Source of the DNA: Eukaryota sp. GEM-RC1
Taxonomy: Eukaryota
NCBI GenBank assembly: GCA_040285855.1
Contig: JAUFOQ010000016.1
Span: 1,302,001-1,366,000, forward strand
DNA length: 64,000 nt
Direction of reading: 5' to 3'
Made by a program: the position numbers and the translations under genes. Under the pieces are notes generated by a model. It was not told the origin of the DNA. It made no database searches and saw only the letters and a program-made list of their open reading frames with translations. This document shows, piece by piece, positions 6,434 to 64,000 of this stretch (positions are counted from its first letter, which is position 1; each line of letters begins with the position of its first letter).

Positions 6434-6582
6434 CGCTTTGATTAATAACTAACAGTGTTAGAATTAGCTTATTAAACGATCAGTACAATGGACTTTAACG
6501 ACAACAAACAGATACACACGGTCCATTTACAAACATATAACAGAGGAGTACCATCAGATTCAACAACTATTCGCTACAAACC

Positions 6583-8925
6583 TGTAGGAATATTCCATAA
6601 AAAACCATCAAACGCAGTGCATAAAAGATGAAAATCATTGAAAAATTGCAAACACGGTTAAAGTGCGAATGAAACAATGGAAAACTTACATGTAGGTTTT
6701 TGTCGAAACCAATTAATGTAAATTACTGAATGTGAATCTATTAAGTATACTTCAATTGAGTTCTTTCCTTCAAGTAGAACCACCATCTTTATTATAATTA
6801 ACAGATATTGGACGTGTTGTGTATCTCACAAAGCAAGAATTTTTCAAAACCCCTAAATTCAACCAACAAATACACACAGACAATGTACATTCCACACACA
6901 GAGCAATTGCCACAGGTCATCGTTCTCGAAGATTTACAATAGAAAAACCCAGTTTGTAGCACGCAGAAATGCACTTGTCATTTTCATCAGAAATGCCGCT
7001 CACGGATCCAATAGTGTTGTCTGTAATGGACATCCTTTGCGGGAGCCTTTGTATGTATGTTGGAATGACGTGTCAGTCATCGACGATGAGCTGTCTTCCA
7101 CTAGACGGAGCCGCATTGACTGGTGAGCTGGAGGTTCTCAGATCCTCATCTTGGTGGTATTGGTTTCACTTCGTCTAAATGGTGGACCAAATCTGCTTTC
7201 ATTGGTGGTGGTAAGAATTTTGTCTTTGAGTTCTGTAGACGGTACCCAAGTCAAGAAAATCTTCTTGTTTCGACAAGTAGTTGTTTCTTGGTAAATTTGA
7301 GATCAGAATTGTCACTAATTTCACCTGACCTCTGGCAAACTTGTTTTCCAGCAGATATTTGTGAAATTCCAGAACGATGTGTCACCTCGTTAAAATTTGC
7401 TCTTAAGAAACTCCAAAAACACCTTTTAAAACATTTTGAATGTCTGGATTTTAAAATTCGACTTGGCTCGGCCAAAGAAAAAAATCCAGCTTTCGCAAAT
7501 TTTTTAATCGATTTAAAGGACAGTTCTTCAGTTGCTTTGATTAACCAAATTCCTCAGATTTATGGTTTGTTGTTGAATGATCATCAATGGACTACAACAT
7601 TCAGACTTCGATGTTTCTTGTGGCCATCTAATTTACCCAATGATCTTCAATGCAAATGTGGTAAATTAGTTACTTTTTCTCACCTTTTGAGTTGCAATCG
7701 TTTCATTACTTATAGAACTTGTATTCATGATGCTGTTAGAGATCAAATTCATGCAATGTGTAAGTCCTACAAAATCGAATCTTTCGTTGAGCCACTGTTG
7801 AGATCACTGGAAATCAATAATTCAAAAAATAGTGATTCTGATAAGACTTTTGGTAAACGAAGAGCTGATGTTATAGTTCCATCAGTTAATGATGAACTAA
7901 CCGTTGTTGATGTGATTACTGTGGATGTTTGCAAAAAAAGTGCATTCAAGGATGCTAAAACTGAAGTTTCGCCACTGAATTCTTCAGAACAATACAAGAG
8001 AAACAAATATGATGAACCACTGACTGCTCTCAAACATATTAGACATGTTGAGTACAAATTATGTCCTTTTGCAATTTCAATTTATGGTCGACTTGGTAGA
8101 GATGCTCTTTGTTTTCTCTCTGATTTTGAGAAAGTGGTCAAAAAAGAATGAACAAGAAATTTGATTTCAAATTTTGGTTGAATCGTATTGTTTTTACAAT
8201 ATTTAAAACAATTCCTATCATGATTTCAAAAGCTCTATTAGCTCTCAGTGTTTTTTATGAAGAAAAAGCTGATGTGAGTTTTAATGGCAATGATTGTTGC
8301 TTTAATGATATTGAATTCTAGTATTTGTGTTTATTTTAATGTTTTTAATAAAGGGGTGAGCTGGAAAGCGTGTCGGTCAGTGTGATGATTGTGGGGTATG
8401 GACGAGGCCAGATTGATGGAGCAGTCATCACCCACAGCCCTGGACTAGAGGAAGATCGCAGTTCATTTTTTTTTTGAGGTGTCGTGCGTCAGGAAAGCGA
8501 CTGTGTTTGTCCATGTGGACCATTCTCTTTGTCTAGCACTGTTGTGTATCCTCTGTTATTTTTGTTGTTGTGTGGACTCGATCACCAGAAATAAGTGATA
8601 TAAGACATCTCTTTATGACTATTTCAATAAAAGATCTGTACAGAACACATGTTTGCAATATCAAAACATGAGTGTTAGGAAAGCTTACATGTAGACACTT
8701 GGAGAAGCCATAACACAATCTTCTTTATTCAATGATTGAAACCATCGTTTCTGAAACTCCTATCTCTAACAAGGAGGTTCAAGAGGCAATCTCATTGTTC
8801 TTGGACAATGAACAGAATGGACTTGATGAAAAGACTTATGTATCGATACTCTTTATAATAGTCTTGCTGAAAGTTATTGAGGAATTATGAGTTGGTCCTG
8901 TCTTATCTCTGTTTTTGGTCCACAT
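6583..8925. repeat. Dispersed ~1.1 kb repeat of unknown class, interrupted by the RLE insertion at 7133-8354
   Basis: 6583-7132 plus 8355-8925 align colinearly with the uninterrupted copy at about 55565-56750. Confidence 0.85.
7133..8354 (+). mobile_element. 5'-truncated RLE non-LTR retrotransposon with 10-11 bp target-site duplication
   Basis: CKCG..HLLSC, IHDAVRD, RADV..VDV, KRNKY, PFAISIYGRLG; GGTGAGCTGGA duplicated at 7122-7132 and 8355-8365; empty site at 56100-56110. Confidence 0.9.
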
Positions 8926-14679: not shown

Positions 14680-15564
14680 TAGATGAGTCGCCTCGACTCA
14701 ACTGCACTTTTTACGAGTCGACTCGACTCAACTGATGTAGCGGAGTCGACTTAGTCGACTATTTGAGTCGATTGCACAGATCTCTTTCCCAAGTCGAGTC
14801 GAGTCGAGTCGACTTAAACAATGTCTGAGCCGAGTCGAGTCGACTCAAGTCATTTATTACGTTGCATCAAATTATCCCACATGTGGTTTATATATTATCT
14901 TCCATTAAAAAGTTCAAGATTGAATACTGAAACAACACCAATTGACTTTCGTCTTTGTGGTTAAAAAAATCAAGTGTAGTATACTAACAACGTTACTACA
15001 TGTAGTGCTCAAATGATTTTTGTTAAACCAGTTTCTTGTTTCTGCTCTTTGAGTGTTTACCTCCAACAAAGACCTGTAGAATTCAGCTCTTTCTCCAGAT
15101 GAGAAATCTACTCTCAATCAAGGCCTAGAACTGCTTAAACCGTTCTTCGCTGTCACTGAAGCTATTTCGGGAGAATCGTACCCCACCATGAGTTTTCTCG
15201 TTCTTTGAGTGACGAAAATATTAGAGCATCTGCATGTTTGCAGTCATGGAGCATCTTTCTTGGTGATGAATTTGCGTTATAGGCTACTTCAGTACTTATA
15301 GACTGTATACTAATAGCTTTTCTTGTTTCTTGTTATAAAAAAATCCTGCATTTTGCATTTATTTAGACGAATGAATTTCAATGATTGGGCTATTGTTACT
15401 GTCGCTACTCAATAGTCGACTCGAGTCGACTCAAAGCCGAGTCGAGTCGACTCAGATAAATAATTAGTCGAGTCGAGTCGACTACACGATTCGTAGAGCC
15501 GAGTCGAGTCGACTCAGATAAATTTCTAGTCGAGTTGAGTCGAGTCGAGTCGTGCACAGGTCTA
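14680..15564 (+). mobile_element. Non-autonomous hAT element, copy 1, with an inverted left end
   Basis: Right TIR TGCACAGGTCTA; AGTCG/CGACT subterminal arrays; transposase relic LLKPFFAVTEAISGESYPTMS; flanks AATTTTTTC and AATTTTTC; near-identical to 35458-36308. Confidence 0.88.
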
Positions 15565-20224: not shown

Positions 20225-20495
20225 GTAAGTGCAAATACTAGAACTCAATGTCAGCAGTGCAATATTCAGTGCCATTAAAACTCACATTTGCTGTTTCTTC
20301 ATAAAAATACTGAGAGCTAATAGAGCTTTTGAAATCATAATAGGAATTGTTTCAGATATTGTAAAGACAATTCCAGGCAACCAAAACTTAAAATCAAATT
20401 TCTTGTGCATTCTTTTTTTGTCAACTTTCTCAAAATCAGAGAGCAAACAAAAAGCATACTTACCAAGTCGATCATAAATTGAAATGGCAAAGGAC
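20225..20495 (-). mobile_element. Degenerate 3' fragment of the RLE retrotransposon
   Basis: FAISIYDRLGKYAFCLLSDFEKV..KKFDFKFWL matches the 8060-8330 region. Confidence 0.8.
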
Positions 20496-20994
20496 AATTT
20501 GATGGAAAATACAATACGGTTTTCCAATCAGACGTTCTAGAATTACGTTTCTTTCCTCAAACAAATTCTTTGAGAGCTCAAATGTCGTATTCAATATTTT
20601 TTGCAGTTTTCATACTGCGGAGGGAAGAGAGGAAATAATTCCTTTAGCAGTCTCCTTTAAGTTTGGAACATAGGTTTTTACACTGGGTTTGCAATCGCTG
20701 TTTTTACATTTTAGGGGATAATGATGATTCAAATATTAAATTTGTGTAAACCAAGGATGAGAAACTGAACTGAACTTCTCGAATTAACAGTCACAGAGGA
20801 CTTCAAAATCGAATAAGCAATTCTTGTATAGAAATGTTGATTCCATTTCGGCCAAGTTGTTTGGCGGTCACTTACTTTTCGTAACAGGTACAGTACTTCG
20901 TTTGATACGTCATTTTAGTAGTCCTTATTTATATTTACTAATATTTATTTAGTTTCTTGTTGTGTGTTTGTATCATACTTGGAAAATTCAGTCA

Positions 20995-22592: not shown

Positions 22593-23288
22593 ATGGATGC
22601 TGACAGTTTGCTTCTTCTTGCTGCAGAAAGAGATGATCTGACAGGTGCGGGACAGATTCTCTCAGCTGGTGGTAATATCAACTGTAGAGACTACAAGGAA
22701 AACACACCACTACACATTGCTGCAGCTCGATCAAACTGGAGAATGTGTAGATTTCTATTGGACTTCTCTCACTGCTACAAGAACCCAAGAAATGATACAG
22801 AAGACACACCATTGTCATTATCTGTGTTGAACAAACATCCTGAAACTGTAATGACTTTATTAGAATACAAATGTGATGTGAACACAAAAAACATTGATGG
22901 GGTCAGTCCTCTTCATATTGCTTGTCAAGTTAGGGATGAACAATCAGTGAGAATGCTTCTAAGCCATGGTGCTGATCCTTCCACTGTTGACAATGATGGA
23001 AATAGCCCACTTCACATGGTTTGCACAGATCCTATATCAGTTGAATTAGCTGAGATGTTGCTAATTGCTCACGCATCAGTTAATGCTAGTAACATTGAGG
23101 GGTTCACCCCATTGGAGTTAGCGGTACAAGAATCTGGTCACAATGTCAAGATCCTTGTTGATCTATTACTCTCAAAGGGGGCAATTGTAACTGAGGATGC
23201 TATTAGTAACGCTACAGATCACAATATCAAATCAATGTTGATCGAGATAGCGTGTTTAGAAGCAGGAAAACACAGTGAACTTGTGTAG
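22593..23288 (+). CDS. Ankyrin repeat protein
   Basis: TPLHIAA, TPLSLSV, SPLHIAC, SPLHMVC and TPLELAV repeats. Confidence 0.95.
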   Translation: MDADSLLLLAAERDDLTGAGQILSAGGNINCRDYKENTPLHIAAARSNWRMCRFLLDFSHCYKNPRNDTEDTPLSLSVLNKHPETVMTLLEYKCDVNTKNIDGVSPLHIACQVRDEQSVRMLLSHGADPSTVDNDGNSPLHMVCTDPISVELAEMLLIAHASVNASNIEGFTPLELAVQESGHNVKILVDLLLSKGAIVTEDAISNATDHNIKSMLIEIACLEAGKHSELV

Positions 23289-23303
23289 AAATCTTGTACT
23301 CGT

Positions 23304-23460
23304 ACTGTGAATTTCATTCCAAATGCATAAGGGCATAACCCTTCACATTTTCATGATCTCATGAGCAAGCTCGTAAGCAAACTCATGAGCAAAACTCACA
23401 GTTTGAACAAATAAATGTCCTCATTCGCAAAGTCTTTTAAGACGAGCTAACTTCATAGAT
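23304..23460 (-). ncRNA. Candidate Fanzor omega-RNA scaffold (guide predicted to continue from 23303 downward)
   Basis: Directly 3' of the Fanzor stop; two blocks identical to 63618-63734; identity stops at ...GAAATTCACAGT; 12-bp closing helix with the internal ACTGTGAGTTTT; nested AAGGG/CCCTT and GTCTT/AAGAC hairpins. Confidence 0.72.
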
Positions 23461-26343
23461 TCAAGATTCCTGATCTTTCTGGTTTACGTGTGAGTCCTTG
23501 GGTACATCTTTCTTAGGCTTATTTGGACAAGTTGTTTTGTTATGTCCAGGTTGAGAACATATACGACACTTGTTAGGACCTCTGACTTTTGTTAGAGGAC
23601 GCTTTGCTTTACCCTTACCCTTACTCACAGTCTTTTTCTTTGGAATCTGATCTGTATTCCCGCCATCCACGACAGGTGTTGTTTGAGATTTTGGTCTCTC
23701 GAGGATGGCAGGTCTACCTTGACCTTGAATGGTTCCATTTACAATATTGTAAATATTGATAGCAGAGTTGAAGTCTCTATTCCAGAGGACATGACATTTA
23801 GCACATTCAACTAAGCCCCATGGTGAGACTTTGTTGTTCTTCAATCTTTCTTTCGAAAATGTCAACTGGTCAGTCCATTCATCATCAAAGTTACGCTGCA
23901 CAATATTGTCTAATTGATTGTGTTCCATAATTTCCTTTTTTAATTCTTTCTCTTCCTTCTGTAACTTCTTCTTCCAATGAGGATCAGTGACTTTTATCCT
24001 TTCAGGATTGGAACAGATACCTTCGTCGTTTCTGGAAACACATGCAGAGCAACATTTGCTGGTCTTAAATTCATCAACTAGGAACACTTTAAATCCAAAT
24101 TTTCTTAATAATTTCCGAATTGAAGCACCTTTTACAGTAGATGCTTTACCTCTTCTTCGACGAAAAGCAGTGTCGTTCCAGTCTCCATACCCAACAACGA
24201 CTTCATCTGGGTTTCCAAACTGGAGAGCAAATCTGTGAAGCATGTTTTTCTCACTTCGTTCCTTTCTTGAATACTGTGTGAGACGATTCCTTCTAAACCA
24301 CTTTTCTTCGTAAATTCCTTCAGTATTTCTTTGATCAGTAGTGGGTGATCGTAGTAAAGAACAGGTAATTTCTTTACCAAGAACAAAAGCAGAATACAGA
24401 GTCAAATCACAAGATTTACTACCTGGCGAGTTAGAGCCCCATTGATCTAAAATTTGTTGCCCATTTATGTCAATGCGTCTGCCATCTGGAATGTGAATAA
24501 ATTGGGTAGAGTATTGTTGTAACCGTTCAGATTCAGATAAACGGTGGAGATTATATCGTCTTATTTTCTTCTCCAGCTTCCTCTTCTTTCTCTTAGCTCT
24601 TTTTCTTTCCTTCCTTGTTTTTTTCTTTTCCATGGAGACTTTTTAATATCGGCATTGCGCTCCCCAGCAGTGTATCTGAATACTTTCCAATCGTCACGAT
24701 TTTTCAACTTGACAGTTGATGGTTTGTCAATAGTGGGTGCGTCTTTCCAATCCTTCAATTCCTTTTTCAATTTTTTCAAGCTTCCTTTTTTCTTTGATGA
24801 TTTTGGAGAAATCTTTCTTCTTCTGAGATTGGCTGATGTATCGAAACCTTCGATTTTCTTTTCCTCCTCAGATTTTAAAGAAGCACAATACATCAAATCA
24901 TGCTGATTAGGGTCAATAACAACAATTCTTTTGGATTTCAAATTTAAGTTTTGAATTTCTGTGGAACTCAAAGAATCAATGTACCTTTCAGTAGCTGTGT
25001 AGTCAACTGCTTTCACCTTCTTATGAGGATTTCCTCTCCCATCAAGCAGATCTTTCCGCATCATCATTAAACTACAGCTAACTCCATCTGTAGAAATAGA
25101 ACTGTATTTGAAGTCATGAGACAATGACTTTGGAAGACACTTTGGTTTCAAAACTGAGTGCCAAATATCTTTTCGAACGTCATCAAAGCTACCTTTCATT
25201 TCTGATGCATAAACTTCTTTAAACCATGTAGTATCCAATCTGATATGATTAGGAATCAGTGATTTTGTTAGAGGAAAAGGATTATTGGCAGTAACACCAG
25301 GACAAGAGTCCTCAACAAGACGTTTCAAATACACTGCATGACTTAAGAATTTCAAAGGATCTACTTTTTCAGCATAATAGATTGTTTTCTCCATTTTACC
25401 TTCAAAAAAAGTAAACAAATAGTTAAAAAATAGTAAACTCAGTCTAGAATTGGGATCAGGAAACACTTCAACATCTTGAAAATTAATTTTTGAAATTTCC
25501 CCATTAATGATCAACTGTCTGACTTCATTAAGCTTTGTACACAACTCTTGTCGTAGATTCTTATCAGTAAGCTTGTTAAGTCTATCTTTTTCAGGGTAAC
25601 CAAATTAAATACTTGAAAAACATATTCATGAAAGTGATCACTCATGTTAGTCTTGTAATTCGTTATAATTTCAGTAGCCATGTAATGCAATATACGAGAT
25701 AAACGATGACTACTGGGAAACACAATCCTATCAAGTCCAACAGATCGAGCAGCTATTTCTAAACGAGGAATATAATACATCAAGAAGTGTTGAGCAAACT
25801 GATTTTGAGTTGAGCCATCATTTGTGTTAGAAATTATGTTTTCTAAAGATTCTTGCACAGTCTCAATATGATTCTGATTGTTTACAAGTTTGTTGTCCCT
25901 AATCGTCATCATAGACAACACTTGTTCCATTGATTTCAACGTAAAAAAATTCTTCCAGTCTGGCAATTCAATTTTGGCAGTTTGAATTTTAGTCCAAAGG
26001 TCAGGTTCAGGTTTAGGTTCATCACTCGCATCTTCAATATTTTCTAATTTAATAGGAGGAGTAGCAGCATGGATAGACTCTGAATGTACATCTGTTTCTT
26101 CATCAGTTGACTCATCTGTATCAGAATTCATTTCTTCCTTAACAGTTACATTTGGAACAGTAGCAGGCAGTAACTTCTGAATGTAACCTATAATACCTGA
26201 ATGGTGAAAATTATGAACAAAAAATGTTTCAAAAAGAGAGTACTACGGACTCTTACTTGGTGAGCTCTCTTAACACGAGATTCAATAAATTTAACCTTCG
26301 CTTTGGACACAACATTGTCTAGTCGTTTCTTAACCACTTTCAT
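23461..26343 (-). CDS. Fanzor1 (eukaryotic TnpB-like RNA-guided endonuclease) moiety, about 960 aa, with C-terminal CCHC knuckle; split by three homopolymer frameshifts
   Basis: ISTDGVSCS; RuvC-I VVIDPN (D 24912-24914); VGYGDW then LVDEFKTSKCCSAC (E 24070-24072); CAKC..WNRDFNSAINI (D 23773-23775); GRPAIL; N-terminal VKKRL..VKRAHQVRVRSTLFLK and YKTNMSDHF; CRICSQPGHNKTTC. Confidence 0.9.
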
Positions 26344-27300
26344 TGGTGACTTTGAACGTAATGTTTGTTTTTTGGGATCCAATAGGTCAGCCAACAAGTA
26401 CTCAATCAGAGGTAATTGTTGAATTGAGTTCATCAACAATAGCGGTCTTGTCGATTCCTTGGCCCAAAGTTCATTTACTTTCTCCAAATTTCTTACAAAT
26501 TTCTTTTTAATCTTATCGACCTTCACTTTGGGATTGTCTGGAACTAAAACATTAATACTGTCAATTATGCCATGCAAGTTTTGGACATTATTGACCAATT
26601 GAACTTCATCAGGATCAGAGTCATGATTAAGTTCTTCCAAGCGTTTGACAGTTTCATTTTTAGAAAAATTATTCATTTCAAGAAAAATTTGAACAACATT
26701 TTCCAAAAAACGGCCACCAGTAAAGACATAAAAATTCTTCAGTACAGCATTCAAATCGAGACTAAAAAACGGACCAAAAGTTGTTTCCTTACACCATTTG
26801 TTGAACCAAAAGGGAATGTAGGGTTTAAATTCTGGAAAAGTAAACGTTGTATTGATTTTGAGGACTTGACAACGTGATACAAGAAAGGGAAATGTATCTA
26901 AGTGAAAGTCATAACTCACAAACAATCGTGGACAATGTTGAGTAATGAAGGAAATGAAGTTTTTAAGCATACTGGATTCACTATCTGAAATATGTAAGGT
27001 ACACAAATCCAAGTTTGTAGTATCAAAGTTGCCATGAGAAAATAAATGTTTTTCATTAAACTCATTGTGATCAATGATCTCGATGAAAATTGATACAATA
27101 GGATCAACAGAAGAATCACGTTTAACTTCTAATTGATCTTCAGCTTCACCTTCAACAGTTTCAATGTCATCATCATCTTCTTGAACAAGTTGAACATTTC
27201 TGCCATTAATTCTTTCTTTTTGGCAAAATCACTTTGAACATGAATTAAACAAAAAGTTGGTAGATTGTTCCAAAGTAGAGGGGATTTAAGAAAGTCTTGA
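26344..27300 (-). CDS. Degenerate family-B DNA polymerase 3'-5' exonuclease-like domain, in frame with the Fanzor N-terminus
   Basis: DPIVSI, SESSMLKNFISFITQHCPRLFVSYDFHLDTFPFLVSRCQVLKI, SLDL, FLENVVQIFL; the same ORF (26188-27012) runs into the Fanzor N-terminal motif. Confidence 0.6.
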
Positions 27301-27337
27301 ATTTGTATTTCTTCTTCTATAGGCTCAGTGTGTAGAT

Positions 27338-28369
27338 TTACTTCCATTTTTGGATTTCTTCTTGAATTGGCGATGGATACGACATAATGGAGGCCTTAAT
27401 TTTGGGTGGTAGTTCAGATGGTGGTACTTCAGATGATTCCAATGTGGACATACGGCGGTGAGTCTTTCGTATTGGAGTGTCACCAGTTGAAACAAGGGAG
27501 CTGGTAGTTCTAAATTTATTTCGTTGAATTAAAGGTGAACCTCGTGGTGATGGAATATCAGAAATTTTGGCCTTTCTTTTTTTAGTGCTTAAACCAGTAG
27601 ATGCTTTAGTGCTAGCAAGACGCTTACCTGAGATTGGTGACGCAGAAACACGCGACAACTCAACAGGACTAAAAGTTTCAAAATGTTCCAAAATTTTACT
27701 TCGAGACTCGTGAACAGCAATAGTGGTATTACCCAGCAGTTCTTTAACATCAGTCCACCTTATGACCACAGATTGATCTAAATTCATTAAAAGTTCAATG
27801 TATTCGAGAACACAAAAACCAGAGTCAGTTAGAGTATGTTTGATATTTGATGGAATAAATTCTATATTTCTGGTTTCACACATTGACAACACTGAATAAA
27901 TTTTTGACACAATTGTAAATAAATTGGAGGAAGATGGTGCAACTGGCGTTTGGTTAACAGGAAATTCTCTGGCATAATCATCCTCAACGTAGGTCGGATC
28001 AATGAATAAAATATGACTTGTAGGAGATGAAATGATCAGAACAATTAAACCCCAATGACGACCATCAGCAGTAAGATCACACATTGCACTATTGACAGGA
28101 ACAAGTAGCATTTGTTGGTTGTTTTGACCACATTGGAAGAATTTCTGCGTCAAAAAATCTGAAAATGGATATTTATTATAGGGTTGGTCACCATATAATA
28201 ACGGATATAAATCAGTTGGCCTAATTACATAGTCATAAAAGATTAAACCTGTTGATTCCACAAGTATTTTGGAATATTTGATGAACAATTGATCGTCAAC
28301 ATAAGTAAACAATTTCTGAATCTGTTTACGGAGATCTGCAGCATTAAGTTCATTGTTAACTTCACACAA
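27338..28369 (-). CDS. Second Ulp1/C48-like domain (catalytic Cys replaced by Ser) plus basic, Ser/Pro-rich linker
   Basis: YVDDQLF, LLVPVN..GRHWGLIVL, FIDP, HTLTDSGFCVLEY. Confidence 0.72.
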   Translation of the reverse strand: MCEVNNELNAADLRKQIQKLFTYVDDQLFIKYSKILVESTGLIFYDYVIRPTDLYPLLYGDQPYNKYPFSDFLTQKFFQCGQNNQQMLLVPVNSAMCDLTADGRHWGLIVLIISSPTSHILFIDPTYVEDDYAREFPVNQTPVAPSSSNLFTIVSKIYSVLSMCETRNIEFIPSNIKHTLTDSGFCVLEYIELLMNLDQSVVIRWTDVKELLGNTTIAVHESRSKILEHFETFSPVELSRVSASPISGKRLASTKASTGLSTKKRKAKISDIPSPRGSPLIQRNKFRTTSSLVSTGDTPIRKTHRRMSTLESSEVPPSELPPKIKASIMSYPSPIQEEIQKWK

Positions 28370-28375
28370 CCTTTT

Positions 28376-29332
28376 TCAAAAAAAATCAGTCGATAGATTA
28401 GACAAACTTTCATGTGTTGTAAGAATTTGTAAGTACTTTTGAACATATGCAATGACATAAATTCCACAATCACTTGGAGTCTGAGATTTCGGGACGTTTG
28501 CATAACGTATCGTGAAACTTGGCATTTTTTCTCTGAATTTATCAACAATGTGGTTCAAAAAGTTGGAGTTCAGTATTGGATCAATAACTGTTGCAACATT
28601 TTGTACACAATCCAATAGAATAACACCCCAATGAGATCCTGAAAATGTGCGTGACGCAGACAGGGCAGTCATACCGTCATTGATAGGAGCAATGAGGAAT
28701 CGAGTACCGGTGGTTTTAGCAATAAGAATTTGACGATCTACAGTTTGTTTATGTTCAGGTGAAAGATCAGTAATTAATCCATTCATCACACTAGAGGGGA
28801 TACTGTATAGATCAAATGCTAGTCTAGCAGAGTTAAAAAGGTACTGACAATATTGAAAGATAGCATCGTCATCTATCCATTGGCCAGGATTCAGATACTC
28901 TAGGGAGTCTTTGGACAACGGTCCGGGATTGGATTCCACGTCACCATTTATGGTTAAGTCTTTTTGAAACGGAGGATGAGAAGAGATTAATAAGCAAGCG
29001 AAGGGACTAAAGCACGAGCAGCAACCACAACTTCCTACAGCATTACCTTTTCTAATGAGGATGCGTTCGGAAGAAGCAGCGAAGGGACTAAAGCACGAGC
29101 AGCAACCACAACTTCCTACAGCATTACCTTTTCTAATGAGGATGCGTTCGGAAGAAGCAGCGAAGGGACTAAAGCACGAGCAGCAACCACAACTTCCTAC
29201 AGCATTACCTTTTCTAATGAGGATGCGTTCGGAAGAAGCAGCGAAGGGACTAAAGCACGAGCAGCAACCACAACTTCCTACAGCATTACCTTTTCTAATG
29301 AGGATGCGTTCGGAGAGAGATGATTTTGTCAT
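28376..29332 (-). CDS. Polyprotein N-terminus: four Cys-rich 27-aa repeats, 2A-like motif, Ulp1/SENP8-like C48 protease
   Basis: DLTINGDVESNPGP; LNPGQWIDDDAIFQY, APIND..GSHWGVILLD, VIDP, SQTPSDCGIYV (His-Asp-Cys with oxyanion Gln). Confidence 0.82.
   Translation of the reverse strand: MTKSSLSERILIRKGNAVGSCGCCSCFSPFAASSERILIRKGNAVGSCGCCSCFSPFAASSERILIRKGNAVGSCGCCSCFSPFAASSERILIRKGNAVGSCGCCSCFSPFACLLISSHPPFQKDLTINGDVESNPGPLSKDSLEYLNPGQWIDDDAIFQYCQYLFNSARLAFDLYSIPSSVMNGLITDLSPEHKQTVDRQILIAKTTGTRFLIAPINDGMTALSASRTFSGSHWGVILLDCVQNVATVIDPILNSNFLNHIVDKFREKMPSFTIRYANVPKSQTPSDCGIYVIAYVQKYLQILTTHESLSNLSTDFF
28998..29314. repeat. Perfect 81-bp tandem repeat, about 3.9 copies
   Basis: Units start at 28998, 29079, 29160 and 29241. 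Confidence 0.97.
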
Positions 29333-29951
29333 GGGAAGAAAAAGACTAATTCACTGATTCACTGTAATCTGCAATGTAAGAACATCATACACTGAAAAAG
29401 ATATCCTAAAAGTTATAGTTCATCTGATTATTAACAGAAGAGCGTACGTCCATCAGTGAGATTGTCAAGACTAGGGGAATACTTTATACCTACATATTGT
29501 TAATCGATACTCGCACATCCATCATCATCCATTTTCAGCTTTATGTTAAGCGTACACATAAACCAATACTGTTGTATATTCACTAGCTACAATAAATTAT
29601 TTATTGGACTGAATCAGAATTTCTGAAACAGGCATGTAATTCTTATGTAACTCTACATCAGTCGAACAAAATGACTACAATCTTTCTCTTTCGGACGACA
29701 GTGATTTGTCCTTTGATACGTACGCTAGTGTTGCAATTATTAAACATATATCTCTATACAAAAAAATGAATCTCATGAAGAGATAGCGTGTGTATTCTGT
29801 TTGTTGGTGTTTTCTATAGTATATTGTAATAGTATAAGCTGTTCGATATGATAATTCATTACGTCTTTATTCAGACTAACGCAAAGAGAAGTTATAAACA
29901 TAGTTTTAAAATACAAAGCTACTTCCAGTAACTACATAACTGTAACATCAA

Positions 29952-32900
29952 TCAATCCATTAACTGTTTGATTTCATCAGGAACACAAATTTCCTTGGCA
30001 TAATACTGAATGTATTTTGTGAACAAATTTTTAATGTGAAAACCGTCGTCTTCAGATGTCCAAAGAATTTTCAATACATCAACTTTTACATGAAACGTAC
30101 ATAGTTGATTCACATTCGAGGGAATGTCATATATGATACAAACAAGACGCTTGTCAACAACGGATTGACTTTTGTTCAACAAATTATATGCGACCTGTGT
30201 TACTGCTACAAGAACTGCTTTCTTCGGATTTACCAAAAATTTTTCGAAAATATTGGACTTCTTCTTACCGTCGATTTTTTGTACAAAGTGAGTATACATC
30301 GAGTGGAAGCCTTCTTGACAATGATGCTACGAGTCCTCTGCCAGTTTCCACGTTTTTAACAGTGATAATGATTTTTTCTTCTGTTAACAAATGGCTGTGC
30401 AATAAGTGTTGCAAGTTGTTCAGTTTTGAGTCAGATACAATCAACTGTGATTTTTCCAAACATGAGGGAATTGATGGCGGTACAGTTGATGGCGGTACAG
30501 TTGATGATGGAGATAAAACTTCGTCAGATTCTTCTCCATGTGAACCAATTAAATCTCCATATTCGTCCTCTGAGTCATCATCAGGAATGACAACAAAATT
30601 TTGAGTTGTAACCTTTTTTACAATTGGTTGTTCAACTTCTTTAATAGATAATTGTTGTTGTTCAACTTCTTTAATAGATAATTGTTGTTCTGTTGCAACT
30701 CTTTTGACACTGTTTGTTTCACCTTTTTCATCTGTTTTTGATCGTCGCTTCAATCTTTCAGGTATTTCAGGTGGTGGTAATCTAAAGAACTCTTTAACTG
30801 GTGGTTTGTGATACTTAGGGGATACACATTTCTTTGACGAAAGGGAAGGTTGTCCATCAGGTTCTGCCCAACGAAGAGTCACAATTTTGCCAACATTGGT
30901 TACACAATAGATTTCTGGATTGACACTTGATGGAAAAATTTTAATGAAATTATTAAAAGGCGGTGGATCTGCAAGGGTAAAGCGCTCATCAACGTACAAT
31001 TCTGTGGTTACTGCATTGACAATACCAATATGTAACTGGGCTGAAACAAATATGATATAATTGGGATACCCAAATAAGCCACAAGCATCAATAATGTCAT
31101 GTTCAGTATTTACAATGTGTTCCACACTGACATTACTTTCGGAAATATGTACAATATATAAGGAATTATTAGCTATAACAATCCGTTGATTGCTAAAATT
31201 GGGATCTGGTCCAAATTTTGTGGAATGTAAGCCATCAAAGCAGTTAGATAAATCAATGAAATCGGTTGAATTTTTGGCATAACAAATTGATTTTTCTGTC
31301 AGCACCAGATGCATATATGATTTGGAAAATCTGATATATGTTGAATCAATGACATTTTCATTGTTTGGAAGATCAATCTTGTGAACATATTTACAATTTT
31401 CCTTTACAGCAGGCACACATACCAGAACACCATTTGTTTGACTGATATACACGTTTTTACCCACAACGATTATAGAACTATGTTCATTGATTGACTTCGG
31501 TTCTGTTTCCTTTAGCAAGTCAATATATGTTTCAGAATCAAAAGAGAAGAACTGAAGTCAAACAAACCGATAAGAACTTTGTTTTCTATAGGCAAAAACA
31601 CCCACATAGCAGTTGGGTAACCTGGAACATCGTTTTGAACCGCCATCGACAAGTAAGTATAATCAGGAAGCTTTAATGGATTCCAAAAACCTTGATCACC
31701 AACTGTCCATAACATTAACTCTCCTGCAAGAGTCAGAATAATGATGTACTGCCCAGATTCAGTGATAACTGCATTTTTGATTTCAGATGCACATGATTGT
31801 GTGTAACTATCTGAGAAATTCATTGTATTAATCTGTTCCGAAGTAATGGGCAACATGTCAGTGGTAACAAGGGGACATGGCGGCTGTTCACATGAGTAGA
31901 GGTATGTGGACTCTGGATCATATTCCAAAACTGACGTCTCAATTTCAAATTCTTTTCAGACTCAGAGAACAACGATTTTCCTGCGGCAGAGAATGTAGAT
32001 AGATATTTATACAGTACATCCAAGACTTGAAACTTTCCACAATTTGGACATTCAGTATTGACACAGCATTTGAAATTACTGTCGGCAGCAGAGTAATTCA
32101 ACAGAAAAGGCTGGCGTCCACCAACATCAATGGGATTCAGATCAGTAACTAAATCACGTTGGACATTAACGTCGATATCGTTTTCTTGAATCAAATTAAT
32201 TTGATGATAGAATATTGATGAATCAATTTTTAATCTTTCAGAGAGATATAAAACAATTCTACATCGATTGAGACAACCAATGACTTCTCTCAATTGTGAT
32301 AAAACATGGGGATCGTATACATATTCCATTTGATCTTCATTGTTGTAAATAAGAACCTGAGTTGATTGGATATATCCAAATGTGATATTAGAAAACATCA
32401 GTTGAATAAACAAATTCAATAATGAAGGTTAAAACTGAAGTTTCGCCACTGAATTCTTCAGAACAATACAAGAGAAACAAATATGATGAACCACTGACTG
32501 CTCTCAAACATATTAGACATGTTGAGTACAAATTATGTCCTTTTGCAATTTCAATTTATGGTCGACTTGGTAGAGATGCTCTTTGTTTTCTCTCTGATTT
32601 TGAGAAAGTGGTCAAAAAAAAGAATGAACAAGAAATTTGATTTCAAATTTTGGTTGAATCGTATTGTTTTTACAATATTTAAAACAATTCCTATCATGAT
32701 TTCAAAAGCTCTATTAGCTCTCAGTGTTTTTTATGAAGAAAAAGCTGATGTGAGTTTTAATGGCAATGATTGTTGCTTTAATGATATTGAATTCTAGTAT
32801 TTGTGTTTATTTTAATGTTTTTAATAAAGGGTATAATGAAGGTTGAAAGAAGCAGCACATAGAAGGAAATTGTTTTTGTGAAGACACGTAAACGCCAGAA

Positions 32901-33982
32901 TAATTGTGACAACTGGTTGCAGGCAAACGAGGAAAAAGAGAATTGTCAAACTTAAAATCAATGAATTTTACAGTGCCATTTAGAGCGTCACATTTAAAAG
33001 GTAGTTGATAGTAGACATTTTCAATATTCGGTTCCAATTGAACTTCAAAGTTGTCTTCAAAAGGGATAAGTATGCGTCTGTTTAACAATCGAGCAATTTT
33101 TGTGCTTGTGTCACGAACTACAGTATTGTTGTCATTCACAGATTGGAACTTTTCACCTGAGAAAGTCACATTACATTCCACACCACATATCAATGGAAAA
33201 AAGAATTTGTGATATCTTGAGGCAGACACATTTTCAAACATTTTGGCAAAAATAAGAGGAGTAATAGTTTCATTTGAATTTTTAAGGGTTAACATCAACT
33301 TATCTGGTTCTTTGGGTAACAACTGTAAATTAACGCTATTCTGTCCTGCAGATTGTAATATCTCATTCAAATCATTGACTTCATCTTTCAATAGTCCACA
33401 TTCAGATTTACAATGAACAGGCACTTCAGTTGTAGAACTTGTAATTGATAAATGTCTTTGACTTCGCAATACTATTGTATTGGTTGGATATGATGATACA
33501 AACAATAGAGTCAACTTTTTTGGTTCTGTGAGATCACAAAGTTCTTGCAAAAACATATGATCCATAACAGAAGACAACTTTTGTGTGAATTCGTCAGTTG
33601 GATTGGACTTGTAGAGACTAAGCAAACCCTTAACACGGTCTGCGTGTGCAATTAACTTTTGAAAAATTATGCTCAAAGATTCCATATTAGGGTCAGATTT
33701 TAACACGTCAAAATGATTCTTCATCCTTCGCAAAACACGTATTTTCGTGACAAGTGTATCACAAAACAGTTTTAGTGACTTAATATTAAAATATTTGAGA
33801 ATACGAACATTGATTGTACCAGACAATAATCGAAACAAGAAATTCAACATAATGATCAAATCTGAATGTTCATGATTAGTCTTATCAACATACAATTTCA
33901 AAAATTTACCGAACTTTGTAACCTGATTGACATTGTCTGTGTAAAACTTAAAATTGAACAACTTGACATCAAAAGCACACAA
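29952..33982 (-). pseudogene. Large orphan gene (about 1200 aa reconstructed) interrupted by a retrotransposon fragment
   Basis: Removing 32431-32832 and one TSD copy fuses ...FQPSL to LNLFIQ... in frame; remaining breaks lie at A4/A4/T6 runs; CCVNTECPNC motif and a beta-rich region. Confidence 0.7.
32431..32832 (+). mobile_element. 402-bp 5'-truncated RLE retrotransposon copy with 12-bp TSD
   Basis: Essentially identical to 7957-8355; ATAATGAAGGTT duplicated at 32419-32430 and 32833-32844. Confidence 0.93.
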
Positions 33983-34030
33983 CAGGATAATTCCTGGAAC
34001 TGATTGTTTTAGAAGAAAGCAATTAACTCA

Positions 34031-37000
34031 ATGGCACCAACCACTATACACAACATCAATCTCACAGATGACCAACGTGAGATCTTTAACGCAATCACTA
34101 CCAGCAGACACAACTTCTTTGTCACTGGTGGTGCAGGATCAGGAAAATCTTATCTTTTGCATGCTCTCAAATACTGGTGGAGTAACGTCGGATCTCGTCT
34201 CATGCGTGCTAATGGTGAAATCTTCTTCACTGCAACAACTGGGGTTGCCTCAACTGTTTTTGGTGGACAGACCATACACTCACTGTTTGGTTATAAGTTT
34301 ATGAAAGAAGAAGAATCCATACATGATGTTATTAAATGTATGCCATCAAATGTCAAATTATTGTTAAAAAAAATTACAGCAAGAAATACAATGTTAATCA
34401 TTGATGAAATTTCAATGTTGTCCTCCAAATTGTTTCAACGGGCGAGTGACATTTTGAGTGAGCTTATGTACACTCCAAAATGTCACTCCCCGAAGAAACC
34501 ATTTGGAGGAATTCAGATAATTTGTTTTGGGGACTTTCTTCAATTAGCCCCTGTTGTGAAAAGTCTTGATGGAAAAGGAAATCGAAAAGTGGTAATTTCT
34601 GATTTCGCTTTTTCATCAAGTGCTTGGAACAGTTTAAATTTTAAATATTGTGAACTGGCTGGTAGTATTCGACAGCAATCAGATTCCCAATTTTTTAATT
34701 TTCTAAATCAATTGAGATTGGGTCTGTTAGATAATTTTATGAAATCAATTCTGCGTACTCATTTCGAAACAGCAGAATCTGTTGAAAACCCAACAATTTT
34801 ATACGGAAAGAATACTGATGTTGCTAGAGAAAATTTTAAACAATTCAAACTTCTGGCCAAAATTCAGATTCAATTGAATTTGTAGCTGTTGACAAATTCA
34901 ATGAATCTGAATTAAAATCTCAAATCAGAAAAAGAAGTTCTAGATTTCCAGTCAATGAATCTAATTTGGAAAAATATTATGACATTGAAACTTCTGTGCT
35001 GACAAGTCGCTTGGATGACTTTGCTGAAAAAAAACTAGAATGCGTTGTGGGTGGACAAGTGATGTACACTCAACATAAGCCTGAACTTGGACTAGTTAAT
35101 GGTTCAAAAGGAGTTATTGTTAATTTTTCAGATTCATATATTGATGTTCGGTTCAACGCTGAAGCAGAACCGAAAAGAATCAGTCAGTCAAGGTTTGCTA
35201 TCGAACACTTGAACGAAATCGGAAGACCTGTTCAAGTGGCGAAAAGAATTCAGTTTCCGCTAAGACCTTGCTGGGCGATAACAGTGCATCGATCCCAAGG
35301 TTTAACAATTGACGGGATTGAAGTTGCTATCCAGTTTTGGGAATATGCCCAACTTTATGTGACCTTAAGTAGGGTTAGGTCTTGGAGGAGTTTAAAGATT
35401 TTAAGTATTGGAAGAAGTTATCCGGTACCAAATTTGGAATTGTACCAATGGTATTATTAGACCTGTGCAATCGACTCAAATAGTCGACTAAGTCGACTCC
35501 GCTACATCAGTTGAGTCGAGTCGACTCGTAAAAAGTGCAGTTGAGTCGAGTCGACTCATCTCTTTCCCAAGTCGAGTCGAGTCGACTTAAACAATGTCTG
35601 AGCCGAGTCGAGTCGACTCAAGTCATTTATTACGTTGCATCAAATTATCCCACATGTGGTTTATATATATTATCTTCCATTAAATAGTTCAAGATTGAAT
35701 ACTGAAACAACACCAATTGACTTTCGTCTTTGTGGTGAAAAAAATCAAGTGTAGTATACTAACAACGTTACTACATGTAGTGCTCAAATGATTTCTGTTA
35801 AACCAGTTTCTTGTTTCTGCTCTTTGAGTGTTTACCTCCAACAAAGACCTGTAGAATTCAGCTCTTTCTCCAGATGAGAAATCTACTCTCAATCAAGGCC
35901 TAGAACTGCTTAAACCGTTCTTCGCTGTCACTGAAGCTATTTCGGGAGAATCGTACCCCACCATGAGTTTTCTCGTTCTTTGAGTGACGAAAATATTAGA
36001 GCATCTGCATGTTTGCAGTCATGGAGCATCTTTCTTGGTGATGAATTTGCGTTATAGGCTACTTCAGTACTTATAGACTGTATACTAATAGCTTTTCTTG
36101 TTTCTTGTTATAAAAAAATCCTCCATTTTGCATTTATTTAGACGAATGAATTTCATTGATTGGGCTATTGTTACTGTCGCTACTCAATAGTCGACTCGAG
36201 TCGACTCAAAGCCGAGTCGAGTCGACTACACGATTCGTAGAGCCGAGTCGAGTCGACTCAGATAAATTTCTAGTCGAGTTGAGTCGAGTCGAGTCGTGCA
36301 CAGGTCTAGGTATTATTCAACTTTTCATCCTGTTAAACCATCCACTATTGATTTGTATGTTTTGGGAAATCAACATTGTCTTCAACGAGATTTCAATCAT
36401 TTTAATTCATTGTTTGCAAACTTTTGTGCAGAATCGAGTGAACCAATTATGGATGATGTTGTTGTTCCTGAAATTGTTCATGGTGTTGATGAAATTGTTG
36501 ATGAAGTTATTGTTGATAATGTTGAGGAACAAATTATTGAAAATAATGATAATCAAATTATTGACTTGGAAAAAATCATTTAAACCATTTCGAAAAATCA
36601 AATTTATTTGAAACAGAAGCACTACTATCAGGATCCGATTCTGGTGATGAATCTGATAGTGATACAATTTCAACAAGTTTAGATGATTTTGTTGTAAATG
36701 ATGAACTTGAAGAAGATGAAACTAATATTCCTCCCAAATTTATTAATTGTGACTCAATTTTTAACAAAAATTCCCCAGAGATTGGTGTCAATAAGTCTAA
36801 ACTTCCTCAGTTACCACGAGGCAACATTACTCTACCATCGCTTCCCCGTTTGAAGAAAACCCCTTTACCAACGAAGAATTTATTATTAAAAAAGAATGTC
36901 AGTGCTGGTATAGAAAGAAAAAGTTCCCAAGTATTTCCTCTTATTGATGATGAAAAGCGATTTTGTCTCAAGGAAGTTCAAACTGAAAGCTTTGAAAATG

Positions 37001-55404: not shown

Positions 55405-55564
55405 GGTAGCCCATATCTGAAATTTTTAAATTATTATTTATTTGCAACAATTAATTAAAACACTGATTGCAAGTACATTAGTTTAATTTTTCACAACAGC
55501 TCAGGAGTTGTCCTTGTATTGTTTTTTAGAATATACTTTGGAAAGCATCTATTCGGCACAAACA

Positions 55565-56750
55565 TGTAGGAATATTACATAAAAAACCATCAAACTCCTT
55601 GACATAAAAAAATCAAAATCATTGAAAAATTGCAAACACGGTTAAAGTGCGAATGGAACAATCGAAAACTTACATGTAGGCTTTTGTCGAAACCAATTAC
55701 TCTAAATTATGTGAATCTATTAAGTATACTTCAATTGAGTTCAATCCTTCAAGTAGAACCACCATCCTTATTATTATTAACAGATATTTGACGTGTTGTG
55801 TATCTCACAAAGCAAGCAGTAACAAAAGCCCTAAATTCAACCAACAAATACACACGGATCATGTACATTCCATACACAGAGGAATTCCCACAGGTCATCG
55901 TTCTAGAAGAATTACAATAGAAAAACCCAGTTTGTGGCACGCAGAAATGGACTTTTCATTCTCATCAGAAATGCTGCTCACGGATCCAATAGAGTTGTCT
56001 GTAATGGACACCCTTTGCGGGAGCCTTTGTATGTATGTTGGAATGACGTGTCAGTCATCGACGATGAGCTGTCTTCCACTAGACGGAGCCACATTGACTG
56101 GTGAGCTGGAAAGCGTGTCGGTCAGTGTGATGATTGTGGGGTATGGACGAGGCCAGATGATGGAGCAGTCATCACCCACAGCTCTGGACTAGAGGAAGAT
56201 CGCAGCTCTGAGATGTCGTGCGTCAGGAAAACGTACAGCATTGGCGACTGTTTTTGTCCATGTGGACCATTCTCTTTGTCTAGTACTGTTGTTTGTTCTC
56301 TGTTGTTGTGTGTATTCGATCACCAGAAATAAGTGATATAAGACACCTCCTTATGACTAACCCAATAAAAGATCTGTACAGAACACATGTTTGCAATATC
56401 AAAGCATGAGTGTTAGGAAAGCTTACATGTAGACACTTGGAGAAGCCATAACACAATCTTCTTTATTCAATGATTGAAACCATCGTTTCTGAAACTCCTT
56501 TCTCTACCAAGGAGGTTCAAGAGGCAATCTCATTGTTCATGGACAATGAACAGAATGGACTTGATGAAAAGACTTATGCCTTGCTTGACACTCTTTACAA
56601 TAGTCCGGCTGAAAGTTGCTGACGACTTTTTTTTGACTCAACGTCTAGTATTTATGGAACAAGAACACTAAGATAAACACAAATACTAGAAATATATTAT
56701 ATTATGCTGAGGACTTATGAGTTGGTCCTGTCTTATCTCTGTTTGGTACA
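55565..56750. repeat. Copy of the ~1.1 kb dispersed repeat lacking the RLE insertion
   Basis: Colinear with 6583-7132 plus 8355-8925. Confidence 0.85.
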
Positions 56751-62481: not shown

Positions 62482-63617
62482 TACGGGGGTGTTGCCTGGG
62501 TGAAAAGTAATCACAATTGTACATCATTCAGCTTCAAGTCATTTTGGTTCAGAACCGGTTATTACGGTTCCCAAAACTGGCGGTTCAGGTTGCTGAAAAC
62601 AATGAATGAATGAATGAGCATTGATTTGTTTTAATCTATTGTCCTCCACATTTTACATGAGTGATTATAAACCATCGACATGCTACATTCACTGACATTG
62701 TAGATGACAAATGTTGTGGATACTTTCCATTTCTATGTTTGTCGGTTGAAGACGAAACAGACTATATAGTTTTGGAAATAGTACTGTAGTGCACTCAAAT
62801 CCAATAGTAAATCAATTGTTTTAACTGTTCTCAAACACTTAAAACAATTGACTGAAGAATGCAATTTCTTCTTAGAACACTACATTTCATTTCTAACTTG
62901 ATGTAGCCCGGTTGCGAAGATATAAGTGTTTAGGTACCGAAAATAGTATCATTCCTACCACAGAGAACTGCGAAAACAATTGAAAAGTACTAAGACTAAA
63001 TCCAAACGACTTCATCCATATCCGAGAAGGGCCTACGTTTTTGGACTTTAAATTCAAAAATTGTAAAGTTTATCAACTAAACCCGAAAAATGGAAAACAA
63101 TTTACTGTGTTTCCATTCACTCATTCTAAACTTACGCTACTGTTCTTTACATTGTTCTTCAAATGCTTGAACAACTATTCACCTGCAGTACTTATCGACC
63201 CGAAATAAGAAACAGAAAAAGGTTGAAACACAAATTTGTAGTGTGTAGTTCGTTAAATTATGACATATATTCATCTTCATTAAACAAATTTAGAATATCA
63301 ATTCCGATGTAGTTCTTCAACTTTGGAGTCATTCTTGGAATAAGAACTGAACTGTATTAGCACTTGTCTGCCAAGCAGCAGTCGTTTCCCATCTGGTTGT
63401 TTCGAATTTAGTTTATGAACAGTTTTGGTTTCTGTACATGACTCTTGGCTATCTTGTTGTTTTGGATTGTGTGTATTTCTGAGTCTGCTACCGCCCAGAC
63501 TGATACTGATCGATTTGTTCACACAGTGAACTATTTTAATCTGTAATATTCACAAAGGAAATGATTCCGCATCTCATCATACAATGATTTTAGAAGTCAA
63601 TTTTATTGTTATTTACC

Positions 63618-64000
63618 ACTGTGAATTTCATTCCAAATGCATAAGGGCATAACCCTTCACATTTTCATGAGATAACCCACAGTTGACAAAGTCCTCATTC
63701 GCAAAGTCTTTTAAGACGAGCTAACTTCATAGATTCAAGATTCCTGATCTTTCTGGTTTACGTGTGAGTCCTTGGGTACATCTTTCTTAGGCTTATTTGG
63801 ACAAGTTGCTCTGTTATGCCCAGGTTGAAAACATATACCACACTTGTTAGGACCTCTGACTTTTGTTAGAGGACGCTTTGCTTTACCCTTACCCTTACTC
63901 ACAGTCTTTTTCTTTTGGAATCTGATCTGTATTCCCGCCATCCACGACAGGTGTTGTTTGAGATTTTGGTCTCTCGAGGATGGCAGGTCTACCTTGACCT
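63618..64000 (-). mobile_element. Second copy of the Fanzor element 3' end (C-terminus plus candidate omega-RNA), running off the window
   Basis: Near-identical to about 23304-23725; different flank beyond 63618. Confidence 0.93.

Follow-up and report, generated by a model that had tools for sequence, protein, structure and literature searches.

A predicted omega-RNA stem at the right end of a multi-copy Fanzor1 element with a probable 2A-led polyprotein nuclease in a skoliomonad

We analysed a 64,000-nucleotide stretch of contig JAUFOQ010000016.1 from Eukaryota sp. GEM-RC1 (the window). The DNA is eukaryotic and gene-dense, with Pfam matches to an APC subunit, Vps26, Ras and SNAPC1. Two copies of one element lie on the minus strand, with right ends at 23304 (copy 1) and 63618 (copy 2). 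From the ATG at 29332, copy 1 carries a minus-strand frame that encodes, in order, a leader, a 2A-type motif, two Ulp1-like domains, a PolB-type exonuclease domain, Fanzor1 and a CCHC zinc knuckle (Table 1). Read through, with an X at each of six breaks, the whole frame comes to about 1,950–1,958 codons. A sigma-70 scan was set aside as not applicable to a eukaryote.

Table 1. Features of the two element copies, in window coordinates
Feature	Position	Strand	Evidence or remark
Copy 1 flank, predicted guide of predicted length and first base	23284–23303	−	diverges from copy 2 at 23303; unpaired in the fold
Terminal stem, equivalent of stem 2	23304–23402	−	RNA folding, pair probabilities, longer folds
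36-nt hairpin of copy 1	23357–23392	−	replaces the 3-nt bulge 63671–63673 of copy 2
Variable linker	23403–23416	−	14 nt in copy 1, 7 nt in copy 2
Upstream 3' non-coding block, candidate stem-1 region	23417–23460	−	identical in both copies
7-bp hairpin in zinc-knuckle codons, weak alternative stem-1 candidate (post hoc)	23541–23561	−	
Fanzor1 C-terminal piece	23461–24642	−	PF07282, E=3.4e-7
Fanzor1 middle piece with RuvC-I (24903–24917)	24561–25604	−	
Fanzor1 REC-region piece with acidic insertion	25511–26242	−	
PolB-type exonuclease domain (two frames), then start of Fanzor N-terminus	26188–27395	−	PF03104, E=5.4e-6
Second Ulp1-like domain and low-complexity linker	27338–28375	−	similar to the first, E=4e-7
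First Ulp1-like protease domain	28376–28918	−	PF02902, E=4e-5
2A-type motif D-V-E-S-N-P-G-P	28919–28942	−	same motif in relatives from both organisms
Tandem-repeat leader, 81 bp x4, open frame from ATG 29332	28992–29314	−	
Flank of copy 2, predicted guide	63598–63617	−	
Right end of copy 2, shorter scaffold and last codons	63618–64000	−	copy cut by the window edge

Judged by its encoded protein, the gene upstream of the flagged end is a Fanzor1. The C-terminal piece holds RuvC-II, the TNB, RuvC-III and the CCHC zinc knuckle (23527–23568) and ends at a stop codon (23461–23463). In the window copy, the motifs DPN (24903–24917), VDEF (24058–24078) and RDFN (23761–23781) supply the RuvC D/E/D residues, and the zinc-binding cysteines of the TNB (two CxxC) are there as well. 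A search of the PDB with a 644-residue sister protein (P0167) gave five matches at E≤10, the top two being SpuFz1 (E=1.7e-15) and PpFz1 (E=2.3e-10). The cluster containing the Fanzor C-terminal part has 26 members, 24 of them named; among the 15 members listed, all 13 that are named come from Eukaryota sp. GEM-RC1. With at least 26 near-identical proteins, the element belongs to a multi-copy family.

All five coding substitutions between the two copies fall within 31 nt of zinc-knuckle codons (23535–23565 in copy 1, 63809–63839 in copy 2), and four of the five are non-synonymous. Both zinc-knuckle variants, together with hybrids of them, recur in several sister proteins and are therefore subfamily markers rather than signs of decay; the pattern is what gene conversion between subfamilies would give. 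The same organism encodes more divergent Fanzor1 subfamilies (P0172, P0009, P0043 and P0051), of which P0172 likewise ends in a CCHC knuckle.

The 53 terminal nucleotides are identical in the two copies (23304–23356 and 63618–63670), and the flanks beyond them are unrelated. An earlier reading of this DNA, made from the letters alone (the sequence-only reading), had placed the shared ends at 23304 and 63618 with complete divergence outside, and comparison of the copies bears this out. A second common block begins at 23417 in copy 1 and 63691 in copy 2. The spacing between the blocks is longer in copy 1 by exactly 40 nt (33 net within the closing helix described below and 7 in the segment upstream of the helix), in agreement with the earlier estimate of about 40 extra nucleotides lying mostly inside the helix. 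A sharp boundary followed by variable flank is thus seen in 2/2 copies, a number that leaves the exact terminal base uncertain. The two predicted guide sequences match those named in the sequence-only reading, and neither has a second match within the window. Some fixed target-site bases may form part of the shared end, so that the start of the guide is uncertain by at least one base. One base further out, the plus strand reads CACTG at copy 2 (63617) and TA before CTGTG at copy 1 (23303). We take the former to resemble a CACTA/Transib-like start; with two copies at hand, either the CACTG or the TA/CTGTG reading, or neither, may give the true terminus. An exact 22-nt pattern of the end had no match in metagenome contigs. 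Copy 1 ends 15 nt past the stop codon of an opposite-strand ankyrin-repeat gene (23286–23304), a distance at which a 20-nt guide would reach that gene's last codons.

Folded as RNA from the minus strand, the right end forms a terminal stem that begins with a 10-bp closing helix (23402–23393 with 23313–23304), the outermost pair of which contains the last base shared by the copies. Inward of this helix lie a bulge (or the inserted hairpin), then helices of 4, 6 and 6 bp, the innermost hairpin being AAGGGU-UAU-GCCCUU at 23343–23329. In copy 2 the stem spans 63683–63618 and the stop codon lies at 63735–63737. Two claims of the sequence-only reading, a helix ending exactly at the element boundary and an AAGGG/CCCUU hairpin within it, are reproduced by this fold, and the A-U to G-U change it reported is real (23396/63677), with pairing kept on the minus strand only. 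Its 12-bp helix survives in part. That register is available in copy 1 only, where it is slightly suboptimal (−51.9 versus −52.2 kcal/mol); pair 11 of copy 2 is an A-A opposition, and the helix common to both copies consists of 10 bp, the bulge or hairpin, and 4 bp.

The sense-strand folds have energies of −41.6 kcal/mol (z −6.4) for copy 1 and −25.5 kcal/mol (z −5.2) for copy 2, z-scores that are flattered because the limits of the folded windows were picked after the helix had been seen. RNA from the opposite strand folds less well (z −4.3 and −3.0 for copies 1 and 2, respectively). None of 200 dinucleotide shuffles of the minus strand was as stable for either copy, and the 69-nt end of copy 2 ranked within the top 16 when 3198 windows of that length were sampled across the stretch. 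Pair probabilities over the last 10 bases were 0.77–0.96 in copy 1 and 0.80–1.0 in copy 2, and the terminal stem was retained in 6/6 longer folds. Within the family, represented here by two sequences only, none of the 48 predicted pairs has changed on both sides and one has changed on one side.

The insert of copy 1 is a 12-nt unit repeated 3.3 times, a tandem triplication that holds the palindrome CTCATGAG. Being a tandem palindrome, it folds by construction and so cannot count as a sign of selection. Together with a single wobble change it proves little, which makes this part of the sequence-only argument weaker than stated. For the non-coding block upstream of the stem, folding is no stronger than in shuffled sequences (z −0.8 and −0.6), and the structure obtained varies with the 5' limit. 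Two weak candidates for the first stem of Fanzor1 RNAs (SL1) lie in the 23417–23447 region and at 23541–23561, and neither is stable across folds and copies. Two of the five coding substitutions fall in the stem of the latter, a hairpin chosen after the fact, and both positions still pair as G-U; the hairpin is unstable in the folds of copy 2. No clear counterpart of the 7-bp Fanzor1 SL1 was assigned in the folds of either copy. A search of Rfam gave four matches at E≤10, none of them near the gathering score.

We compared the window ends with those of 160 distant Fanzor1 loci (L001–L160; the best 80 of 508 and the best 80 of 510), a widespread giant-virus-type family whose RNAs have a strongly covarying 7-bp stem 1, an A/C-rich linker and an inner covarying helix. 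Enough 3' sequence was present at 147 of the 160 loci, and 140 of these 147 have a common terminal motif followed by variable flank. Dereplication left 48 ends, which represent one related family and not 48 independent cases. At 42 of the 48, at least five of the last seven bases lie in a long-range helix; in both window copies, 7/7 terminal bases are paired in this way. The same pairing score was reached by 2–8 of the 48 at six shifted ends and by 52 of 300 random window positions. With the structure named by hand before counting, a choice that favours the closing helix over slid controls, the 7 bp of that helix in the distant family are 95% paired, mainly through one-sided C-G to U-G and A-U to G-U changes, and two of the seven pairs have changed on both sides; the 7-bp first stem of the same family covaries in all seven pairs. 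RNAalifold, run on the gap-rich alignment of the 48 ends, did not itself return the closing helix.

The likeness of the distant ends to the window lies in this layout: a closing helix flush with the end and varied by wobble pairs, a variable interior and a variable flank. Two covariance models built from the 48 ends gave 18 and 12 matches at E≤10, none overlapping the window ends, so that the likeness is one of layout and not of sequence. When both scaffolds were compared with the 160 loci by BLASTN, only short matches came up; the best (E about 0.03) lay at a distance from the gene end and on the wrong strand. The distant loci differ from the window in their low protein identity to it (23–35%), in having no detectable RNA sequence similarity to it, in their clear covarying 7-bp stem 1, in the presence at 22 of the 48 of an inverted copy of the end upstream, and in lacking a 2A motif, Ulp1 domains and a fused exonuclease. 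An AGAC loop in common with 12 of the 48 distant stem-1 loops was set aside as a four-letter coincidence. One distant locus, L007, has a duplicated end.

The best solved relative of the window family is SpuFz1 of Spizellomyces punctatus (Saito et al. 2023, PMC10432273; PDB 8gkh). Its 75-nt scaffold comprises two stems plus a linker, with stem 2 extending to A75 (an extent that we read from the listed contacts) and U76 as the first guide base; stem 2 tolerates loss of its distal part (PMC10432273). As in SpuFz1, the terminal stem of the window element closes at the element end, the flank follows directly, and the RuvC triad is present. The 3-nt bulge of copy 2 and the hairpin of copy 1 likewise recall the ghost and canonical SpuFz1 RNAs, which have a 3-nt bulge and a hairpin, respectively, in stem 2 (PMC10432273). 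Unlike SpuFz1, the window element has a 3' non-coding part of 157 nt (copy 1) or 117 nt (copy 2) and no assigned 7-bp SL1; Spu-1 has 30-nt inverted repeats, whereas no terminal inverted repeat (TIR) was found in the window. The proteins differ as well: SpuFz1 has 638 residues, against some 1,950 codons in the window gene, which includes 2A, Ulp1-like, exonuclease and zinc-knuckle parts.

For PpFz1 (PDB 9cf0), which also matches the window family, and GtFz1, the RNA region beyond SL1 is reported to vary in length and structure, in RNAs of 75–150 nt (Xu et al. 2024, PMC11423790). Each of the three solved Fanzor1 RNAs contains a 7-bp SL1 (PMC11423790), and none was identified in the window element; the passages of that article drawn on here mention no N-terminal enzyme fusion. 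The RNAs of insect-virus Fanzor1 elements retain a guide-adjacent stem-loop into which the TIR and the target duplication are built (bioRxiv 10.1101/2023.08.09.552727), hence the possibility that the end common to the window copies holds fixed target bases as well.

The Fanzor1 gene, the published layout of SpuFz1 and the helix of the distant family all support the omega-RNA that the sequence-only reading had placed at the element end. We consider it likely that the flagged stretch forms the right-hand end shared by copies of a multi-copy Fanzor1 element, that its terminal stem serves as stem 2 of the omega-RNA, and that the element's gene specifies a polyprotein nuclease. By analogy with the solved systems, the RNA end is probably a further example of a known Fanzor1 design.

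The same stem might instead be a DNA end signal, a subterminal inverted repeat or single-stranded hairpin recognised by a transposase or rolling-circle Rep protein acting in trans, with no role as RNA. The stem is flush with the element end and, treated as DNA, gives a good fold on either strand (z −4.2/−2.9 and −5.2/−4.7). A PIF1-like helicase frame (34031–34885, plus strand; PF05970, E=1.8e-32) lies 4.7 kb from the start codon, on the other strand and outside the element frame; it has a probable frameshifted continuation and may be a host or a mobile gene. Against this, G-U pairs make the fold stronger on the Fanzor sense strand, an end-flush wobble helix also marks the distant Fanzor1 family, in which 22/48 loci do have an inverted end copy, and none of 30 window frames scanned contains a transposase or Rep domain. 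In favour of such a signal, on the other hand, no TIR partner was found. The best local score for an inverted copy of the right end in 29001–34100 was 26, equalled by 3 of 100 shuffles and located inside another frame; 29319–29990 contains no inverted match of at least 9 nt and 29331–31000 no flank duplication of at least 5 nt, and no left end or asymmetric repeat was found upstream. Copy 1 may be 5'-truncated or incomplete. We regard a purely DNA-level signal as unlikely, and the two roles need not be mutually exclusive. Two specific carriers were not supported. For a TIR DNA transposon of the mariner, CACTA or hAT type, no inverted end copy, duplication or transposase was found. Helitrons have a 3' CTRR end, a hairpin shortly before it and a RepHel gene; here the end is CACAGT, the helix is flush with the end, and no Rep domain was seen.

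The coding region upstream of Fanzor1 begins with the repeat leader, which in sister elements is replaced by at least four other, unrelated tandem repeats ahead of the same 2A motif, a pattern that suggests leader swapping. The motif at 28919–28942 fits the D(V/I)ExNPGP consensus of 2A peptides and is predicted to cause ribosome skipping. The first Ulp1-like domain has His, Asp, Gln and Cys in place (the His-Asp-Cys triad) and ends at an in-frame TGA; the second has Ser at the position of the catalytic Cys and matches Atlas Peptidase_C48 clusters (0.94). Two versions of the first domain, about 44% identical, are attached to near-identical second domains (28376–28918 compared with P0183/P0184), which would fit swapping of this domain between subfamilies. 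Aligned with its relatives, the exonuclease domain of the window copy has degenerate motifs. Four sister proteins (P0184, P0188, P0196 and P0200) carry Ulp1 and exonuclease domains in one frame, and the nuclease is likely to be produced as one polyprotein behind the 2A motif. The order of its domains is observed directly; from the sequence we infer a single frame, 2A skipping and the activities of the domains.

A 2A motif of this form near the N-terminus is known from non-LTR retrotransposons (Odon et al. 2013, PMC3708506), and one could picture the terminal stem as a 3' mRNA signal for a host LINE reverse transcriptase, with the element as a retro-mobilised Fanzor cassette. A leader whose tandem repeat differs between copies and the want of a TIR would fit such a cassette. 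We think it very unlikely: neither junction has a poly(A) or simple-repeat tail, a reverse-transcriptase family is present in none of five longer relatives of the first Ulp1 domain, and the layout matches that of Fanzor1 RNAs from elements with TIRs. Unlike in non-LTR retrotransposons, the 2A motif of the window precedes a protease, an exonuclease and Fanzor, with no reverse transcriptase.

Copy 1 has six breaks in its frame (five frameshifts and one in-frame stop) and copy 2 has one frameshift. In copy 1 the five frameshifts all have the same sign and each falls within or next to an A/T run of at least 5, and the in-frame stop has the context T8-G-A5. Long-read sequencing under-calls homopolymers, which gives such one-sign frameshifts, and assembly error is the likely source of the breaks; A/T runs of this length occur in 25–47% of random stretches as long as the overlaps, so that the coincidence with runs is by itself modest. 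At three sites the frameshift state differs among sisters: the break near 27350 is read through in two of three other copies listed, that near 27220 in one clear sister case, and that near 24630 in four of five sisters listed. The break near 26230, at the junction of the exonuclease piece and most of Fanzor, is common to all four other listed copies that reach it, and none of the listed sisters spans the break near 25590; an intact GEM-RC1 polyprotein is thus predicted rather than seen. The 26230 break lies at a T run, with systematic sequencing error, a short intron and programmed recoding as candidate causes; for −1 recoding, nothing stands out in the fold downstream (−12.9 kcal/mol across 82 nt, a value taken without a control). 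Three of the 18 frameshift-like overlaps in the window lie in the element.

That the breaks are real, the copies dead and the scaffold a relic with no RNP today is most improbable, since the number of breaks, the one break common to all listed copies reaching it, the excess of non-synonymous differences and the degenerate exonuclease motifs are set against frameshifts that share one sign, adjoin A/T runs and vary among sisters, catalytic and CCHC residues that are kept, and knuckle variants that mark subfamilies.

Relatives with about 36% identity come from Eukaryota sp. TZLM3-RCL. GEM-RC and TZLM3-RCL belong to Skoliomonas (Metamonada), with SSU rDNA 88% identical, and TZLM3-RCL is the deepest branch (PMC11603281). 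Six of ten TZLM3-RCL members listed carry 2A, exonuclease and Fanzor RuvC in one unbroken frame of 1,394–1,494 aa without Ulp1 domains. In one of these relatives, a single 1,473-aa frame joins 2A, an exonuclease with intact motifs and Fanzor. The acidic residues of Exo I, II and III are present in the TZLM3-RCL exonuclease (FDVET, YNCDKFD and YCxND), which matches PF03104 (E=5e-13), Pol delta chains (E=4e-4) and an Atlas cluster (0.95). In a quick tree of 49 RuvC regions, the four skoliomonad subfamilies form one branch (SH-aLRT 94) with long branches. The tree comprised these four and, among the 93 proteins passing a motif filter once 17 near-copies had been removed from 202, the 45 lowest-numbered of the other rows.

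Exonuclease and Ulp1 profiles matched none of 151 other Fanzor representatives and gave one match in the 160 distant loci, in a separate downstream frame; no 2A motif occurs among the 151 representatives or the 160 loci. When proteins of 810–2578 aa were searched with the exonuclease region, two TZLM3-RCL clusters and one ordinary PolB were the only matches. A Fanzor fused to an exonuclease, to a Ulp1 or other protease, or to a 2A motif was not found in the literature searched; supplements to it, or further papers, may list such proteins. The passages of PMC6338049 drawn on here describe no such fusion, and the terms sought for the architecture are absent from the main text of a 2A survey (PMC13405545). 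Extra domains are frequent in Fanzors according to Jiang et al., who give a supplementary figure (PMC10530073). The same literature search found nothing on Fanzors in metamonads. The protein architecture upstream, rather than the RNA end, is the unusual feature of this element.

If the element works as SpuFz1 does, its transcript would run through the element end, and about 15–20 unpaired bases of flank would act as a guide specific to each copy. As SpuFz1 does, the nuclease may bind the stem base at its WED/RuvC junction, which would account for a helix base that is kept and a distal part that tolerates a 33-nt insert. The nuclease would cut, at TAM plus flank, an allele that lacks the element; repair would then use the occupied allele to restore it, in line with a proposal that vacated or empty sites are cut and then repaired from the occupied copy (PMC10530073). 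Translation through the variable repeat leader followed by skipping at the 2A motif could yield a fixed N-terminus whatever the leader, after which would come the Ulp1-like protease, the inactive-looking Ulp1-like domain, the PolB-type exonuclease, Fanzor1 and the zinc knuckle. The exonuclease domain might trim or bind the cut end, and the Ulp1 domain might strip SUMO from element or host repair proteins or process the polyprotein.

More tentatively, we suggest a skoliomonad Fanzor1 lineage without transposase or TIR that possibly encodes a 2A-released fusion of the nuclease with a PolB exonuclease, active in one species, dead and joined to Ulp1 domains in the other. One chain might then cut the target encoded by the flank and process the break, with the hairpin as a guide scaffold that has no canonical SL1. 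The possible surprise is a natural 2A-released Fanzor1–exonuclease fusion that has persisted across the deepest skoliomonad split compared and has gained Ulp1-like domains in one lineage. An active fusion would reveal how an RNA-guided nuclease of eukaryotes comes under regulation or directs the repair of the cut it makes, would bear on what Fanzors do for their elements, and would extend Fanzors to metamonads. The RNA end offers two scaffold–guide pairs, one long and one short.

The window holds other dispersed repeats: 14763–15564 recurs at 35459–36308, 6564–8875 at 55546–56617, and a further family comprises 7956–8355, 32430–32831 and 20232–20501. Some of these families have internal tandem repeats and strong folds.
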